Below, piece by piece: positions 6,731 to 63,226 of a stretch of DNA of 64,000 bases. Positions within the stretch are counted from its first letter, which is position 1, and the number at the start of each line of letters is the position of its first letter. The notes under the pieces were generated by a model. It made no database searches. It worked only from the letters and a program-made list of their open reading frames with translations, and had not been told where the DNA came from. Made by a program: the position numbers and the translations under genes. This DNA is from an uncultured Pseudomonadota bacterium. GTDB taxonomy: Bacteria > Pseudomonadota > Alphaproteobacteria > Rs-D84. The stretch spans positions 285,127 through 349,126 of the forward strand of contig CASFWA010000001.1 in NCBI GenBank assembly GCA_949298405.1, written 5' to 3'.

Positions 6731-7108
6731 ATGGCACGTATAGCAGGTGTTAACATTCCTACAGAAAAGCGCATCGAAATCGCGTTGCAATACATTCATG
6801 GTATTGGACCTGCAAAGTCTGCTCAGATTTGCAAGGCTTTGAAATTAAAAGATGGTCTGCGCGCGAAAGACTTGACTGATGAGGAAGTTGTTAAAATTTC
6901 TAAATATATAGAAGAAAACTTTAAAGTAGAAGGTGATGTTCGCCGTGAAGTTGCAATGAATATTAAACGTTTGCAAGACTTGAAAACATATCGCGGTATT
7001 CGTCATCGTAACCGTTTACCGGTTCGCGGTCAGCGTACTCAGACAAATGCTCGTACTCGTAAGGGTAAGCGCGTTGTAGTTGCTGGTTCCGCAGTAAAGG
7101 GTAAATAA
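6731..7108 (+). CDS. rpsM: 30S ribosomal protein S13
   Basis: [10 protein letters not shown]...; canonical S13. Confidence 0.95.
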
Positions 7109-7169
7109 TATTAACAGGTAGAGATTAACACGATAGTTAATTGAAGACATCTAAAAAGGTAATTATAAA

Positions 7170-34896: not shown

Positions 34897-34985
34897 GTCG
34901 AACCAAAGCAACAGTCGTTGCATTGTCGAACCATCACCTCAGACCAATAATTAAACCCGCACAAGGCGGGTTGAATTCTTGGTTG
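34897..34985. repeat. 89-bp direct repeat, copy 2, overlapping the last 6 nt of tRNA-Gln
   Basis: See 32759-32847. Confidence 0.85.
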
Positions 34986-35053
34986 GGGCAGCTGGATTCG
35001 AACCAACACTGACGGAGTCAGAGTCCGGAGTTCTACCGTTAAACTATGCCCCA
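34980..35053 (-). tRNA. tRNA-Gln (anticodon CUG)
   Basis: Reverse complement TGGGGCATAGTTTAACGGTAGAACTCCGGACTCTGACTCCGTCAGTGTTGGTTCGAATCCAGCTGCCCCAACCA; U1-A72 acceptor, loop CUCUGAC, T-loop TTCGAAT, encoded CCA. Confidence 0.9.
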
Positions 35054-35105
35054 ATGCGCGCTTTATTATATATTAATTTTGCTTTTTTGCAATCAAAATA
35101 TTTTC

Positions 35106-35133
35106 TTGTCTTTTTATGTGCTTTTCGTATAAT
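35106..35133 (+). promoter_or_regulatory. sigma70-like promoter (TTGTCT-16-TATAAT) driving leader A
   Basis: Consensus -10; downstream TGAATCCAMAGGGAT is shared with leader B. Confidence 0.5.
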
Positions 35134-35139
35134 TTTTAT

Positions 35140-35378
35140 GAATCCACAGGGATGTGGTTTCGGGCCGTAAGAAAGCCAACCCAAAAGCAGCATAAGTTTT
35201 TTTATGCTGAAATGTAGGGATGATACACGGCGCGGATTTGCGCCATTTATTGTCTCTGAACCCCGTATCAGGTCGGGGAGCCGTCAGTTATAAAATAGGG
35301 TATCCCGAAAACTGGCGGGGTCATACTTTTGGGTGATTTTCTTAACTCCCCGACCGCCATTTCCTTGGCGGTTTTTTA
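35140..35378 (+). ncRNA. structured 5' leader A (riboswitch/attenuator-like, unclassified) ending in an intrinsic terminator
   Basis: Paralogous to 62433-62683. Helices GUCGGGGAG/CUCCCCGAC, CCGUCAG/CUGGCGG and terminator CCGCCA/UGGCGG+U6, all with compensatory changes in the paralog. Confidence 0.65.
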
Positions 35379-35476
35379 TAGGATTATTATCAAAAATATT
35401 TTTGTTGACGATAGTCCTAGTTATGATAGGCTTTTTGTACAGAAGGCCCAAAATAAAATTTAATAAAGGAGAAAGT

Positions 35477-38400
35477 ATGTCTACATACAAGCATCTAGCT
35501 GATTTATTAAAAATCTGCTCTGTGTTGCCGGTGCTGGCAGTTATGCCCGCAATGGCAGAGGATAATTTTGCTATAGAAAATCAAATTTATAGCGACTTAA
35601 TAGAAGGCAATGTTAATAAGGATAGTACACGTGGTGGTGCTATAACCATTAATTATAACACAAATGGTGTTACAGTTGCAGATGGAACCGTTTTTCAAAA
35701 TAATGAAACAGAAGTGTCTGCAGGTGGTGTTATAAAAGCCCTTAATGGATTTACTGTTGGGGATAATGTTAAGTTCTTGAATAATAAGGCAACAAAAAAA
35801 GGTTGGGGCGCAGGTGCTTTGTATATAAAGTTGGCTAATGGTGCGACTCCATCTGAAAATACAGATGTTGTAATTGGCAAAGATAGTTTGTTTGAAGGTA
35901 ATGTTGCGGGTCTTGGTGGGGCGATAGGTTTAGAATATGGTGATTTAGAAATTGCAGATGGTGCGCAATTTATTGGTAATGAATCAACAAGTGCAGAAGC
36001 AACACATGGTGGTGGTGCAATAATTGTTTGGCAGGACCAAAAAGATCGTCCAGATTTGCATTCAGCTTTGAAATTAAATGGTGCTACTTTCAGTGAAAAC
36101 TCTGCTGTAAATGTTGGCGGTGCTGTTGCTGTTTTTGATACAGGTGCAAAAGTAAGTATGATAAATACCGTATTTGGTAATAATTCTGCTAATAAAGGTG
36201 GAGCTATCTATAATGAAGGTGAAATATCCTTAACTGGTGATACACAGTTTGTTGAAAATTCTGCTTCAAATACTGGTGGGGCAATCTTTAATGCATCCGA
36301 AGGTGTTATAACAGAAATTTCAAATGCTTTGTTCCAAGGTAATAAGGCAGAAAATTATAAAGATGCAGAAGCAGAATTAAAAAAAGACGTCTATGCCCAG
36401 GGTGGTGCTATTTATAATTTGGGTGAAATTGGTGCCGTTACAGGTGATTTTTCTAATAATACTGCACATACAAAGTCAGAAACCGCAAGTAAAGCAACTG
36501 CAAATGGTGGTGCGCTGGCTCTGTATCAAAGTACAATAGAAAGTATCACAGGTAATTTTGTTGGTAACGCAGCAATTGCAGAAATTGTCGGCAAAAATCA
36601 TGATTATTCAGATGATATGGTTTCTCAGGATAAGTTAGTTTCTGCTGGTGGTGGCGCGATTCATATCGAAGGTAAATGGGCAACTGGTGATACAACAAAA
36701 ATCGGTTCCATTAATGGTAACTTTGTAAATAATAGTGCAACTGGTGATGCTTATGCAAATGGTGGTGCTATTTATATCAAAGCAGGACCAAACACAGATG
36801 TTTCTATTGATAAAATCACAGGCGACTTTATAAATAATAAAGTTGTTGCCGTGACAGATAATAAAGACATAGCAAAAACTTCTACTGGTGGTGCTATTTC
36901 TATCAAAGAAGCAAGTGGTAAAACTGCAACAGTTGATGTAGAAGGTAATTTCGGTGGAAACAGCGTTACAACAAATGCGACAAATGCTTTTGGTGGTGCC
37001 GTTTATAATGAAGGCACATTTACTGCAAAAGGTAATTTCCAGAATAACTTGGCTTTCTCTAATACCGGAAAGGTTTATGGTGGTGCATTGTATAACAAAG
37101 GAACTGCAAATATCACAGGTCACTTTGTAAATAACGCTGCGCAATCAGAAGACCATGTAAGCGGTTTTGGTGGTGCTATATTTAATGACGGTGATTTAAC
37201 ATTAGCAGAAAATACAACGTTCTATGCAAACCGTGCAGATAATGCAGGTGGAGCATTGTATAATGGTGGTAAAATTGAAAATCTGTCGGGTATAACATTT
37301 AGAAATAATTATGCTTTTACAGGTGGAGCAATTAATAACGCTAAGGTTAATGCAGATGCGACTGCGGGGTATATAGGAACAATTGAAAATTCTTCGTTTG
37401 TAGGAAACTTTGCCGCTGCTTCACAAGGGGGGGCGATTCGTAATCAAGGTGTTATAAACGATATTAAAAGTTCTCTGTTCGAAGGGAATGTGGCAGCTAA
37501 TGGCGGTGCCTTGAATAACGGTACATGGGGAACTGTTGTTAATAGCATTGTAGATACTCAATTTATTAATAATACTGCTTTGACAGGTATAGCTCAGGGT
37601 GGTGCAATTGTTAATGCGGGTACAATCGGTTTGATTGATAATTCAACTTTTGCCGGTAATCAGGCTGGTAAATTAGGTGGTGCTATTGCAAATGTGACAC
37701 CACAGGATTCTAGCAACCCAGAAAAAGTATCTGAAATTACTTTCAATGGCGTTACTTTCACAAATAACGTTGCTGGTGTAGAAGGTGGTGCTATCTATAA
37801 CAAAGGTGCGATCACTTTCCAAGGCGATAACGTTTTTGCAGGCAATACTGCTGCAGGTGTTGCAAACGATATCCATAACTTAGGTTCCTTGACTTTTGCT
37901 GATGGCACAACCATCATTGGTGGCGGTATCACAGGTACAGGTTCTTTGGATTTGAACGAAGGGGCTACTCTGAATATCGGTGCTAACACAATCAATCAGG
38001 GTACAATGAACATCAATGGTAATGTTGCTGCTTCTATCGTAAACTCTCAGTCTTACGGTAAATTGGTTGGCGACTTGACTGTCGGTGATTCCGCAGAACT
38101 TACATTGAATATCGGTGCAACTGGGGTTTATAATATCTTTGCAGATGAAGACCTTGAAATTGCTAATCTGACAATCAATGCAAATAATGCTTTGTATAAT
38201 GTTTCTATGGATGGCAGTGCTATCGTAGTTGAAACAAAAGCTGTCGAAGAAATTGCAGCCGCAACAAACTTGGCAGTAGATACTGCAGGCGTTTTGGCAG
38301 GTTTGGCAAATAGTGATAGCTATGAAATGGGAATAGCTTCGTTGGTAGCTCAGCAGGCTTTGGCAGAAGGTAATACAGAATATGTTGAAGCAGAATCTGC

Positions 38401-39307
38401 AAAGTTGAAAGCAGATGATAAACCTGTTACTCATTCTGTTGCAACATCTGTTCAGAATCAGGTCTTGTCCTTGGCTTCTGGTCGTATGTCCGGTAATGCA
38501 AATGTTGGACGTAGTGGTGGTGATTTAGCAAATGCAGATTATGGTGTATGGGCGCAGGGGCTGTTCAATAAATCTAAACTGAACGGTCAATTCGACGGTT
38601 ATACTCGTGGGGTTGCTGTCGGTGCAGATGCATTGATTGGTGGCGATTATACAATTGGTATCGGTTATGCTTATAACTCTACGGATGTTCATGCAGAAAG
38701 TGCTCGTGATACAGATATTGAAAGCAACAGCGTATTTGTATACGGTCAGTACAAACCAGCACAGTGGTATGTAAATGCTGCATTGAACTACACAATGGCG
38801 GACTATACAGAAACAACAAACGCGTTCGGTGTTGATATCAATTCTGAATATGATGTCACATCTTTCGGTGGTCAAGTTGCAGCAGGTTATGACTTTGCAA
38901 GTGGGTTGACACCAGAAGCAGGTGTTCGCTACTTACATGTTTCTCAAGACGACTATAATAACGGCTTGGCAGATATCAAAGTTGGCGATACAGATTACTT
39001 GACAGGTGTCGCAGGTGTAAAGTATACCTTTGATATCGATACAGAAAAAGGTTTAAGTTTGCGTCCAGAATTGCGTGCGGCAGCTACATATGACGTATTG
39101 TCTGATGAAGCAATCGCAACAGTCACAATGCCTGGTGCCGCATCATACATTGTTGACAGTAAACGTCTGTCTCGCTTGGGTGGTGAATTCGGTATCGGTT
39201 TGACTGCAAACTATAAGGGTGTAGAAGTATCGTTGAACTATGACTTAGACTTGCATGAAGATTACACTTCTCAGACAGGTATGTTGAAGTTCAGATATAA
39301 CTTCTAA
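35477..39307 (+). CDS. autotransporter with polymorphic-membrane-protein (Pmp) type GGA(I/L/V) / FxxN repeats
   Basis: RBS AAGGAGAAAG; signal peptide ...AVMPAMA; roughly two dozen FxxN...GGAIYN units by eye; C-terminal beta-barrel domain ending ...GMLKFRYNF. Confidence 0.88.
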   Translation: MSTYKHLADLLKICSVLPVLAVMPAMAEDNFAIENQIYSDLIEGNVNKDSTRGGAITINYNTNGVTVADGTVFQNNETEVSAGGVIKALNGFTVGDNVKFLNNKATKKGWGAGALYIKLANGATPSENTDVVIGKDSLFEGNVAGLGGAIGLEYGDLEIADGAQFIGNESTSAEATHGGGAIIVWQDQKDRPDLHSALKLNGATFSENSAVNVGGAVAVFDTGAKVSMINTVFGNNSANKGGAIYNEGEISLTGDTQFVENSASNTGGAIFNASEGVITEISNALFQGNKAENYKDAEAELKKDVYAQGGAIYNLGEIGAVTGDFSNNTAHTKSETASKATANGGALALYQSTIESITGNFVGNAAIAEIVGKNHDYSDDMVSQDKLVSAGGGAIHIEGKWATGDTTKIGSINGNFVNNSATGDAYANGGAIYIKAGPNTDVSIDKITGDFINNKVVAVTDNKDIAKTSTGGAISIKEASGKTATVDVEGNFGGNSVTTNATNAFGGAVYNEGTFTAKGNFQNNLAFSNTGKVYGGALYNKGTANITGHFVNNAAQSEDHVSGFGGAIFNDGDLTLAENTTFYANRADNAGGALYNGGKIENLSGITFRNNYAFTGGAINNAKVNADATAGYIGTIENSSFVGNFAAASQGGAIRNQGVINDIKSSLFEGNVAANGGALNNGTWGTVVNSIVDTQFINNTALTGIAQGGAIVNAGTIGLIDNSTFAGNQAGKLGGAIANVTPQDSSNPEKVSEITFNGVTFTNNVAGVEGGAIYNKGAITFQGDNVFAGNTAAGVANDIHNLGSLTFADGTTIIGGGITGTGSLDLNEGATLNIGANTINQGTMNINGNVAASIVNSQSYGKLVGDLTVGDSAELTLNIGATGVYNIFADEDLEIANLTINANNALYNVSMDGSAIVVETKAVEEIAAATNLAVDTAGVLAGLANSDSYEMGIASLVAQQALAEGNTEYVEAESAKLKADDKPVTHSVATSVQNQVLSLASGRMSGNANVGRSGGDLANADYGVWAQGLFNKSKLNGQFDGYTRGVAVGADALIGGDYTIGIGYAYNSTDVHAESARDTDIESNSVFVYGQYKPAQWYVNAALNYTMADYTETTNAFGVDINSEYDVTSFGGQVAAGYDFASGLTPEAGVRYLHVSQDDYNNGLADIKVGDTDYLTGVAGVKYTFDIDTEKGLSLRPELRAAATYDVLSDEAIATVTMPGAASYIVDSKRLSRLGGEFGIGLTANYKGVEVSLNYDLDLHEDYTSQTGMLKFRYNF

Positions 39308-62349: not shown

Positions 62350-62360
62350 ATATGAAAAAG

Positions 62361-62390
62361 AAAAACACCCGCATTATTGCGGGTGTTTTA
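62361..62390 (+). terminator. intrinsic terminator after clpX
   Basis: CACCCGC-ATTATT-GCGGGTG followed by TTTT. Confidence 0.75.
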
Positions 62391-62397
62391 ATAATTC

Positions 62398-62426
62398 TTG
62401 TTTTTATTTTTTACATAATTTATAAT
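62398..62426 (+). promoter_or_regulatory. sigma70-like promoter (TTGTTT-17-TATAAT) driving leader B
   Basis: Consensus -10; same spacing to the shared GAATCCA start motif as in leader A. Confidence 0.5.
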
Positions 62427-62432
62427 TTCCTT

Positions 62433-62683
62433 GAATCCAAAGGGATTTGGGTTCGGGACTTAGAAAATCCCATAAATACGCGGTGCGTTAATGCGCATTG
62501 TTATCTATATAAAAGAAATCATATACATACATTGTATGTCATTGTTTTCTTTTGTCCCGATGTTTTAAATGTCGGGAAGCCACGATTATATAATAGGGTT
62601 TTCCCGAAAGTCGTGGGGTCATTCGTATTTATGATTTTTCTAACTTCCCGACCACCAGTTTGTTTGGTGGTTTTTGTTTTTTT
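62433..62683 (+). ncRNA. structured 5' leader B (paralog of leader A) ending in an intrinsic terminator
   Basis: GUCGGGAAG/CUUCCCGAC, CCACGA/UCGUGG, terminator ACCACCA/UGGUGGU plus U-run; the SD and ATG of the next gene follow within about 25 nt. Confidence 0.65.
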
Positions 62684-62707
62684 ATACAAATTAAGGAGTT
62701 AGAAAAA

Positions 62708-63226
62708 ATGAAAGGTTATGTAAAATATATTGTGGGCTTTTATATTTCTGTTTTATTACCAACATATGCAAATGGAGGTATTTTTGAGGATTGGTATGAG
62801 AATACGTTACCCAGATATCAAATGCAAATAACAGATATTATAGAATTTTACGGAGATACCGCAGTTTTATTAGATGCTTTGTCTGATGATAGTGGTATAA
62901 GAATAAAAATTAATACTTTGCGATCAGATATGACAGAAAATTATGTTGTTTGCTTTTACGGATGTCATGACAAGAATATGTATGAAGCAAAATCAAATAC
63001 GAATTCTGTTATTTGTTGGGATTGTAAATATCAAGATTGTGAGATGTGGCCTTTTTTGGGGTATTGTAAAACTTGTCCTTCATCTGAGGTTAGTGGCATA
63101 AATGCTGTGCTTTCTGATAATCCTACTTCTTATGATATAAGAGATTGTGTGATACCCAAAAATACGGTTATTAAGGATGAGTCTGGGACGTTTATATTTA
63201 CAGATGATTGCCATTATTCAGAGTAA
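62708..63226 (+). CDS. small secreted cysteine-rich protein
   Basis: RBS AAGGAG; signal-like MKGYVKYIVGFYISVLLPTYANG; CWDCKYQDC...YCKTCPSSE. Confidence 0.65.
   Translation: MKGYVKYIVGFYISVLLPTYANGGIFEDWYENTLPRYQMQITDIIEFYGDTAVLLDALSDDSGIRIKINTLRSDMTENYVVCFYGCHDKNMYEAKSNTNSVICWDCKYQDCEMWPFLGYCKTCPSSEVSGINAVLSDNPTSYDIRDCVIPKNTVIKDESGTFIFTDDCHYSE

Follow-up and report, generated by a model that had tools for sequence, protein, structure and literature searches.

What kind of RNA stands in front of two genes in a 64,000-nucleotide stretch of contig CASFWA010000001.1 (hereafter the window), from an uncultured alphaproteobacterium? Its two copies, leader A (35140-35378) and leader B (62433-62683), had been described in a first-pass annotation, made from the sequence alone, as an unclassified riboswitch- or attenuator-like leader and its paralogue. 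Our analysis gives a different answer. The leaders are a sub-threshold alphaproteobacterial subfamily of the Xcc1/c4 antisense RNAs, present as two copies with different specificity boxes, and they are probably divergent, chromosomally co-opted antisense cassettes of the c4/Xcc1 type. Structure and covariation, kinship with the family sRNA-Xcc1 (RF02221), a layout that follows that of phage c4 RNA box for box, and cognate complementarity at both downstream start sites are established.

A shared fold held by long-range helices

Each leader opens with the G-initial motif GAAUCCAMAGGGAU, 6-7 bases 3' of a TATAAT box, and closes with a G+C hairpin and a U run (35352-35373 in A, 62650-62672 in B); the start motif, the box and the terminator can all be read from the sequence at these positions, as the first reading had it. 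The promoter of leader A, TTGTCT-16-TATAAT, has 10/12 consensus matches in a promoter scan. Aligned with each other, the leaders are 77% identical over ~300 columns, and their minimum free energy (MFE) z-scores against shuffles of their own sequences are -8.0 (A) and -7.8 (B). The description of a conserved, strongly structured RNA with its own promoter was sound. A motif search and a covariance-model search of the window returned A and B only, and no third copy. The parts of the two leaders are listed below, with the support for each.

Leader A
35106-35133, plus strand: promoter (TTGTCT-16-TATAAT; scan), with the start placed putatively at G35140
35140-35161, plus strand: H0, 5'-terminal hairpin with a GGGA loop; one compensatory pair; equivalent to the first a1b1 hairpin
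35163-35177, plus strand: H1, hairpin GGC/GCC whose loop holds box a1, UAAGAAA (35168-35174), complementary to a' (covariation)
35180-35187, plus strand: box b1, CCCAAAAG, complementary to b' in the P3 loop (covariation)
35229-35254, plus strand: T1, internal terminator-like hairpin GGCGCGGAUUUGCGCC with a U-rich tail, in the place of IsrK or the phage P1 a1b1 terminator
35261-35265, plus strand: anti-P1 strand CCCCG, which can pair with the 5' strand of helix P1 (sequence)
35271-35355, plus strand: Xcc1/c4-like three-way junction (RF02221, 42.5 bits, E 2.8e-6; model R1, 97.5 bits; covariation)
35271-35280 with 35346-35355, plus strand: helix P1
35281-35287 with 35312-35318, plus strand: helix P2
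35298-35306, plus strand: hairpin P2b
35320-35337, plus strand: hairpin P3
35326-35333, plus strand: box b', CUUUUGGG
35338-35344, plus strand: box a', UUUCUUA
35352-35379, plus strand: G-CCA tail (35356-35359) and intrinsic terminator T2, whose lower stem overlaps the last 4 nt of helix P1
35447-35453 and 35472-35479, plus strand: candidate target boxes CCCAAAA and AAAGUAUG, the second over the start codon, both complementary to b'
35466-35471, plus strand: Shine-Dalgarno (SD) sequence of the autotransporter gene

Leader B
62433-62454, plus strand: H0, 5'-terminal hairpin after the TATAAT box (sequence, fold)
62455-62479, plus strand: H1 (GGGA/UCCC) with a1, UUAGAAAA (62460-62467), then b1, CAUAAAUAC (62471-62479) (covariation)
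62483-62506, plus strand: T1, terminator-like hairpin GUGCGUUAAUGCGC and AUUGUUAUCU (terminator scan)
62555-62564, plus strand: anti-P1 strand UCCCGAUGUU, pairing with 62568-62577 (present in the MFE fold)
62570-62653, plus strand: three-way junction (RF02221, 40.8 bits, E 6.3e-6; R1, 88.1 bits; covariation)
62571-62579 with 62644-62652, plus strand: helix P1
62580-62585 with 62611-62616, plus strand: helix P2
62596-62605, plus strand: hairpin P2b
62618-62635, plus strand: hairpin P3
62625-62633, plus strand: box b', GUAUUUAUG
62635-62644, plus strand: box a', UUUUUCUAAC
62650-62686, plus strand: A-CCA tail (62654-62657) and intrinsic terminator T2 (terminator scan)
62698-62707, plus strand: box a2, GUUAGAAAAA, a perfect 10-nt complement of a' (SD 62693-62698, AUG 62708)

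Homologues were gathered by exact-pattern scans of genome and metagenome collections, which demand exact motifs; 14 of 17 metagenome hits were chance matches. Six distinct sequences resulted: A, B, a divergent copy from a Rickettsiales metagenome-assembled genome (MAG; L001) and three metagenomic copies (L005, L006 and L013). Two further copies, L002 and L003, are near-identical orthologues of A from uncultured alphaproteobacterial MAGs, each with a PMP autotransporter downstream of the element.

Covariation upon the addition of homologues had been set beforehand as a check on the fold, and the six distinct sequences support it. The four helices reported as compensatory (the 5' hairpin, CCACA/UGUGG versus CCAAA/UUUGG, together with P1, P2 and the terminator) are exactly as described. 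In the 3' domain, seven pairs of P1, P2 and P2b have changed on both sides, against 2.3 ± 1.1 in column shuffles and 0-1 in slid registers, and the P3 stem GUCAU/AUGAU is invariant. When the 5' domain was joined to the 3' domain for the same six sequences (alignment A3), 95.8% of cells in 45 pairs were paired and 24 pairs carried both-sided changes (shuffles, 9.1 ± 2.2; slid registers, 3-6).

The strongest covariation of the element resides in two long-range helices that had been overlooked, in which 12/17 pairs together have changed on both sides. The first joins the 9-nt loop of H1, whose own stem shows both-sided covariation at 4/4 pairs, to J3/1; half of its eight pairs have changed on both sides, and a single G-C pair shifts along an A/U tract between homologues. 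The second joins the linker 3' of H1 to the P3 loop and to two bases in the 3' strand of P3, with both-sided changes at 8/9 pairs, its b1/b' boxes reading CCCAAAAG/CUUUUGGG, CAUAAAUAC/GUAUUUAUG, AUGUUGAAA/UUUCAACAU, UAUCAAAG/CUUUGAUA and GUGUUAG/CUAACAC. In each of the six homologues the complementary boxes fall within the P3 loop and J3/1. Several conserved segments once taken as unpaired are in fact paired: AGGG and CCC form hairpin P2b, GGUCAU and AUGAU form the invariant P3 stem, and UUUUCUAAC pairs with the loop of a 5' hairpin.

MFE folds of A and B also pair the region just 3' of the 5' hairpin with the distal 3' domain. Since the long-range helices cross P1, a nested-fold program cannot display both together; the MFE fold picked the long-range helix and the anti-P1 pairing, and the proposal that an upstream CCCCG hairpin competes with P1 was borne out. 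That strand is present in 5/6 homologues. A hairpin with a U-rich tail recurs in the variable middle region and is terminator-like by scan in A and B. All in all, antisense boxes (a', b') with their decoys (a1, b1) account for the covarying segments better than a ligand pocket does.

The P2 internal loop, UUAUAnAAUA / GAAA, and the GGGG in J2/3 are invariant in all six homologues. At the tip of P2, L001, L005, L006 and L013 carry a GNRA tetraloop (GCAA or GCGA), A carries UAU and B carries UUUU; in c4, most loops at this position are GNRA or UNCG (Weinberg 2010).

Kinship with sRNA-Xcc1

At Rfam gathering thresholds the window yields two tRNAs only. The search of both leaders that had been set as a check therefore returned no family at or above its gathering score; below that score it returned RF02221, which matches both 3' domains over the full length of the model (positions 1-87), with 42.5 bits for A and 40.8 bits for B in searches of ~450 nt. 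Rescaled to the 64-kb window by our own arithmetic, both E-values remain <1e-3. These full-length, significant, sub-threshold matches, and a box layout that is that of phage P1 c4, mean that the leaders can no longer be called unclassified. No riboswitch family was significant in the Rfam search, preQ1-II alone appearing with E 8.6. A hammerhead or other ribozyme and a 6S-like RNA were dropped as candidates, as neither had an Rfam match.

The relationship also holds in the opposite direction. R1, a covariance model built from the six alphaproteobacterial sequences only, recovers full-length canonical Xcc1 RNAs, the lowest E being 1.8e-9 in 252 kb; it does not recover phage P1 c4. Rfam assigns Xcc1 to no clan. 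The RNA was first described in Xanthomonas campestris integron cassettes and is catalogued as a trans-acting small RNA (sRNA), and in the literature it precedes symE in Xanthomonas integron cassettes and an ORF6N gene in the APSE phage.

Canonical Xcc1 loci as c4-type units

Our account of c4 is drawn from Weinberg 2010, PMC5320573, PMC4825925 and the annotated phage P1 record AF234172. In phage P1, c4 silences the antirepressor gene. Its boxes a' and b' pair on either side, upstream with a1 and b1, downstream with a2 and b2 (Citron & Schuster 1990, as given in Weinberg 2010 and AF234172). One downstream box overlaps the ribosome-binding site (RBS), a1b1 has been proposed to compete with a2b2, and the c4-a1b1 motif consists of two hairpins containing a1, immediately 5' of b1 (Weinberg 2010). 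An intrinsic terminator overlapping the 3' half of helix P1 is reported for some c4 RNAs (Weinberg 2010), and C4 is excised by RNase P at the base of that helix (PMC5320573). According to AF234172 and the Rfam alignments, the phage P1 unit starts with a promoter and two hairpins; a1 sits in the loop of the second one, and b1 seven nucleotides further on. Next come a terminator-like hairpin, which the isrK model covers, and a leader strand that could pair with helix P1. C4 itself is a three-way junction closed by helix P1; its P2 is a tetraloop hairpin, its P3 loop holds b' and its J3/1 holds a'. On its 3' side stand an ACC tail, then a2, and finally b2 at the RBS of icd. Phage P1 itself scores 68.8 bits with C4 (RF01695) and 51 bits with c4-a1b1 (RF03163).

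The same parts were found around canonical Xcc1 RNAs. A BLAST search of plasmids with the Rfam consensus and L023 gave two loci only. Two annotated canonical loci were examined: L023, from a Pseudomonas aeruginosa plasmid with a BRO gene downstream of Xcc1, and L024, from an Escherichia coli phage-plasmid with an ORF6N/P22_AR_C gene in that place. In both, an H1 loop and a linker on the upstream side are complementary to J3/1 and the P3 loop; a terminator-like hairpin and an anti-P1 strand are present too (CCCCG in L024, as in phage P1; weaker, with 4 bp, in L023), and both boxes recur at the SD of the gene that follows. L024 (NZ_CP114132, 776-2298) carries two antisense modules in tandem: a c4-a1b1/isrK/C4 module (776-974) followed by an ORF6N gene (1027-1362), and then an Xcc1 module with its own a1b1 boxes (~1390-1585) followed by a second ORF6N/P22_AR_C gene (1625-2298). 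Neither open reading frame (ORF) is annotated in the PLSDB table.

A first scan of viral contigs with the subfamily pattern gave chance hits only. A scan for canonical Xcc1 found at least 120 loci (L027-L146), showing that this RNA is very common in prophage-like contigs, and 62 distinct loci were compared. Complements of at least 7 nt were far more frequent with cognate than with non-cognate seeds, both upstream and downstream:

a' versus upstream: cognate 58%, non-cognate 5% (62 loci)
b' versus upstream: cognate 85%, non-cognate 13% (62 loci)
a' versus downstream: cognate 60%, non-cognate 9% (62 loci)
b' versus downstream: cognate 69%, non-cognate 8% (62 loci)

The geometry is constant, with a1 near -95, b1 ~12 nt later, a2 at +5 to +29, b2 at +27 to +52 and the start codon near +45; the downstream boxes thus border the start codon. 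The downstream ORFs are of antirepressor types (Bro-N, ORF6N, P22_AR_N/C, KilA-N, AntA and pRha). The Rfam c4-a1b1 and isrK models miss the upstream a1b1 domain of canonical Xcc1, and this part of the unit is therefore currently unannotated.

We conclude that Xcc1 is a c4-type cis-encoded antisense RNA, as in the immI operon of phages P1 and P7; a search of the accessible literature found no statement of this link. RF02221 appears to cover only the 3' third of a larger conserved, c4-like unit made up of an a1b1 decoy, an antisense three-way junction and a2b2 at the RBS of an antirepressor gene. Bakta or Prokka routinely label Xcc1 as a trans-acting virulence sRNA. If the c4 link is true, Xcc1 in general would be the antisense RNA by which many prophages silence their antirepressor, its a1b1 domain having gone unannotated so far, and hits to Xcc1 in Xanthomonas, Xylella, APSE phages and enterobacterial prophages would need to be re-read. 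This view of Xcc1 may be the most useful outcome of the present analysis.

Target boxes downstream of leaders A and B

The genes that follow the two leaders are:

35477-39307, plus strand: 1276-aa autotransporter with Chlamydia-PMP repeats (Pfam Autotransporter and Chlam_PMP), downstream of A
62708-63226, plus strand: 172-aa Cys-rich protein with a signal peptide (no Pfam family), downstream of B

Global RNAduplex comparison of the seed region with 260 nt of downstream sequence, against shuffles, was non-discriminating, long interior loops dominating the result, and was replaced by contiguous-complement tests with cognate and non-cognate seeds. In B, GUUAGAAAAA at 62698-62707, between the SD and the AUG, is the perfect 10-nt complement of a' UUUUUCUAAC. 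A complement of this length is reached by 16/6392 background windows, those at the a2 site being counted in, and non-cognate seeds reach at most 8 nt in the B target region. In A, and likewise in L002 and L003, CAUACUUU, formed by the end of the P3 5' strand and b', pairs over 8 nt with AAAGUAUG across the start codon. No non-cognate seed exceeds 5 nt here; taken alone the match is modest, as ~6% of background windows reach 7 nt. A second complement of b', CCCAAAA, stands 30 nt upstream, and the a2 candidate of A is G-U-rich only. Among the other homologues, L013 has a weak 7-nt match over the AUG, and L001 forms 9 bp, one of them G-U, over the AUG of a 25-codon ORF.

Genomic contexts of the element

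Leader A lies between a tRNA-Gln gene on the minus strand and the autotransporter gene; leader B lies between clpP-clpX and the gene for the Cys-rich protein. Only 25 nt separate the B terminator from the downstream AUG, no promoter-like site was found between them, and leader B is continuous with the 5' untranslated region of that gene. Both copies are outside any recognisable prophage, in contrast to the mobile-element settings of canonical Xcc1 (integron cassette, prophage or plasmid), and neither is upstream of symE, BRO, ORF6N or antirepressor genes.

In the full-length homologues (L001, L006 and L013) the spacing between a -35/-10 pair and the first G of the 5' hairpin is constant, as in A; L005 is truncated by a contig end. 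An RCCA-like tail follows P1 in A (G-CCA), B (A-CCA), L001, L006, L023 and L024, and is absent from L013 (GCCU) and L005. L005 has no terminator and runs straight into the SD of a GIY-YIG-like gene, where a hairpin sequesters the SD. L006 sits between a divergent ORF and a convergent lpxI gene. L001 is followed by the 25-codon ORF only (~7092-7169, minus strand; MKKADNRFLGSGLFRRRIRVRPQAR) and then by convergent genes. The AUG region of this ORF, CAUGAAAAA, is the one that forms the 9 bp with L001 b', and the ORF could be a small icd-like target or a chance match.

The L013 element precedes two small Cys-rich secreted proteins. The C-terminal motif of the gene B product, D.SGTFIF..DC.Y, recurs in the second ORF after this element, a 77-aa secreted Cys-rich protein, which hints at a fast-evolving secreted-protein family linked to the leader RNA. 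Among 5.8 billion proteins, homologues of the gene B product were confined to its own 90% cluster. In the ten strain-level contigs of this cluster the 3' domain scores are identical; three of the ten aligned without a length shift and showed zero differences, adding no covariation, and none of the ten showed a further copy of the element beyond the end of the window.

Further features were noted next to the leaders. On the minus strand at 35065-35092, a promoter-like TTGCAA-16-TATAAT (10/12) faces the tRNA-Gln gene (34980-35053, minus strand), divergent from the leader A promoter and back to back with it at ~15 bp; the 90-bp A+T-rich spacer holding both promoters is also kept in L002 and L003. 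Directly after clpX, a perfect 12-bp hairpin between A and T runs (62362-62389) resembles a bidirectional terminator; it separates clpX from leader B, which consequently needs its own promoter. A 116-aa ORF (62352-62702) spans all of leader B. One public assembly annotates it as a gene (L150, 9645-9995), almost certainly in error, the region being a structured RNA.

A proposed mechanism and its alternatives

By analogy with c4, we propose that a sigma-70 promoter starts transcription at G35140 or G62433. The 5' domain would offer two decoy boxes, a1 in the H1 loop and b1 just 3' of it, followed by the terminator-like T1, and the 3' domain would fold into a tRNA-like three-way junction that presents the P3 loop (b') and the J3/1 strand (a') as antisense boxes, followed by the RCCA-like tail and the intrinsic terminator T2. 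A cut by RNase P at the 5' end of P1 may free the junction RNA, with T2 setting its 3' end. Through a' and/or b', the junction RNA would then pair with the ribosome-binding region of the downstream mRNA, a presumed product of T2 read-through, and block its translation. Repression would be relieved when a1 and b1 compete for a' and b', either as part of the precursor (in cis) or, as with IsrK, on a short RNA terminated at T1 (in trans). The processing of the window RNAs, the direction of regulation and the physiological signal are inferred, with release, occlusion and competition modelled on c4, IsrK and P4 CI.

Several points weigh against the antisense reading. Both leaders fall below the RF02221 gathering score of 53 bits, and the C4, c4-a1b1 and isrK models give no match in A or B even at E <= 10. 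The genes downstream of A and B are not antirepressors, the Pfam matches being Autotransporter and Chlam_PMP for the first and none for the second, and L001 and L006 have no co-oriented downstream gene. A is without a convincing a2 box and B without a convincing b2 box, L005 shows no convincing box downstream, and in L001 the cognate seeds do no better than the non-cognate by the Watson-Crick measure; judged from the sequences, the target boxes look convincing for B only, fair for A and weak for L013. T2 stands between the antisense RNA and its proposed target, so that action in cis needs read-through. Finally, the helices of a1/b1 with a'/b' could be a permanent pseudoknotted fold and not a competition.

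Of the alternatives, the one that survives best, though we think it unlikely, is a free-standing trans-acting sRNA, either the ~240-nt terminated transcript or the processed junction, with unlinked targets and only incidental gene adjacency. The strong promoter and Rho-independent terminator of the element would suit it, as would the positions of L006, between a divergent ORF and convergent lpxI, and of L001, before convergent genes, and the cataloguing of Xcc1 as trans-acting. It is harder to reconcile with the B terminator, 25 nt from an AUG with no promoter-like site between, with the finding that the best complement of the antisense boxes of each window copy is its own downstream start region, and with the a2/b2 boxes of canonical Xcc1, which are in cis, just downstream.

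Very unlikely as a separate account, and best seen as a variant of the antisense reading more than as an exclusive alternative, is termination control of the P4 CI or IsrK kind, in which the junction RNA would pair with nascent a1/b1 (seqA-like) and with the downstream boxes and so set termination at T1 and T2, elongation and not ribosome binding being the point of control. Terminator-like hairpins do stand directly after b1 and after P1 in A and B, and the P4 CI RNA and the IsrK locus are described as working in this way with like boxes (PMC4825925); the complementary box, however, lies on the SD-AUG region in B and A, as for translational occlusion.

A ligand-sensing riboswitch or attenuator, whose junction would be an aptamer with the ligand deciding between P1 plus terminator and an antiterminator, is highly improbable: the large P2 internal loop and J2/3 GGGG invariant in 6/6 homologues, the terminator abutting P1, the upstream strand competing with P1 and the SD-sequestering hairpin in place of the terminator in L005 (varied expression platforms being riboswitch-typical) all speak for it, but the downstream genes share no pathway or metabolic theme (PMP autotransporter, Cys-rich secreted proteins, a GIY-YIG protein), two homologues have no co-oriented gene, close relatives precede phage antirepressor genes, no riboswitch family matches, and the covarying segments pair with boxes wholly different between copies, the pattern of antisense specificity and not of a ligand pocket. 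The antiterminator once proposed, between the 3' strand of P2 and the 5' strand of the terminator, does form in the window (6/6 pairs in A, 5/6 in B) but is not conserved: L001 has 5/6 pairs, L013 and L006 lack the pairing, and L005 is without a terminator.

With the antisense reading preferred, a false riboswitch candidate is removed and a concrete mechanism that can be tested by mutation takes its place. The position of the module outside a recognisable prophage, before an adhesin-like autotransporter and a secreted protein, in two copies whose boxes differ, suggests that a phage immunity RNA was co-opted to control host genes in this uncultured alphaproteobacterial lineage. A more specific proposal, which we hold tentatively and as somewhat short of probable, is that a phage immunity module of the c4/Xcc1 type, with its decoy and target boxes, was domesticated in a Rickettsiales-like alphaproteobacterium and duplicated with re-programmed a'/b', each copy gating the translation of one surface or secreted protein. 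If so, the module would act as a switch that is programmable and gene-specific, works without protein and serves envelope or host-interaction factors, here a PMP-type autotransporter and an orphan Cys-rich secreted protein.

Comparison with known systems

One of the closest known systems is sRNA-Xcc1, with which the window RNAs share the three-way junction of P1, long P2 and P3, a U-rich J3/1, a CC-rich tail, the P2 internal loop AUAnAAUA/GAA and a 3-bp tip hairpin, as well as the upstream a1/b1 domain, the terminator-like hairpin and the anti-P1 strand. They differ from it in that the tip hairpin is flipped (GGG..CCC instead of CCC..GGG), P3 (GUCAU/AUGAU) is invariant with the b1 pairing extending into its 3' strand, an extra 5'-terminal hairpin (H0) is present and an intrinsic terminator stands directly 3' of P1. 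The hosts differ too, being uncultured Alphaproteobacteria and Rickettsiales-like MAGs, and the downstream genes encode an autotransporter and secreted proteins, not an antirepressor, BRO or SymE.

The c4 RNA of phages P1 and P7 has the same order and topology from the promoter through the terminator-like hairpin and the anti-P1 strand. H0 and H1 of the window correspond to the two a1b1 hairpins, the H1 loop to a1 and the linker to b1; b' occupies the P3 loop and a' J3/1, an A/G-CC(A) tail follows, and candidate boxes lie at the downstream RBS. As in some c4 RNAs, the lower stem of T2 overlaps the last bases of P1, and the tail forms the 5' strand of T2. Unlike c4, the window RNAs show no sequence similarity by the C4 models; the P2 of c4 is a plain tetraloop hairpin, each window copy has at most one convincing downstream box, the target gene is not icd-ant, and processing by RNase P would apply to the window RNAs only by analogy.

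At the IsrK/STnc1160 locus of Salmonella Gifsy-1, a 5' RNA ends at an internal terminator that some transcripts read through (Hershko-Shalev 2016, PMC4825925), and the read-through transcript is held inactive by long-range pairing of its 5' region with downstream sequence (PMC4825925). The P4 CI RNA and the IsrK locus both act via termination and read-through, with complementary boxes upstream and downstream (PMC4825925). The window RNAs resemble IsrK and P4 CI (seqA/seqC) in having a terminator-like hairpin after the 5' domain, long-range pairing of that domain with downstream sequence and, further downstream, what would be a stable processed RNA; in their relatives, as for IsrK, the regulated gene would be an antirepressor. 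Unlike IsrK, the window is not matched by the isrK model, and its short T1-terminated RNA is putative.

The C4-like 'Group 1' sRNAs of Acinetobacter baumannii have multiplied in the chromosome with diverged a'/b' loops, and their co-option toward host targets has been proposed (PMC5320573). Unlike the window RNAs, which are of the Xcc1 type and stand directly upstream of their candidate targets, those sRNAs match Rfam C4; like the window RNAs, they are c4-type RNAs multiplied in a chromosome, and they provide the precedent for it.

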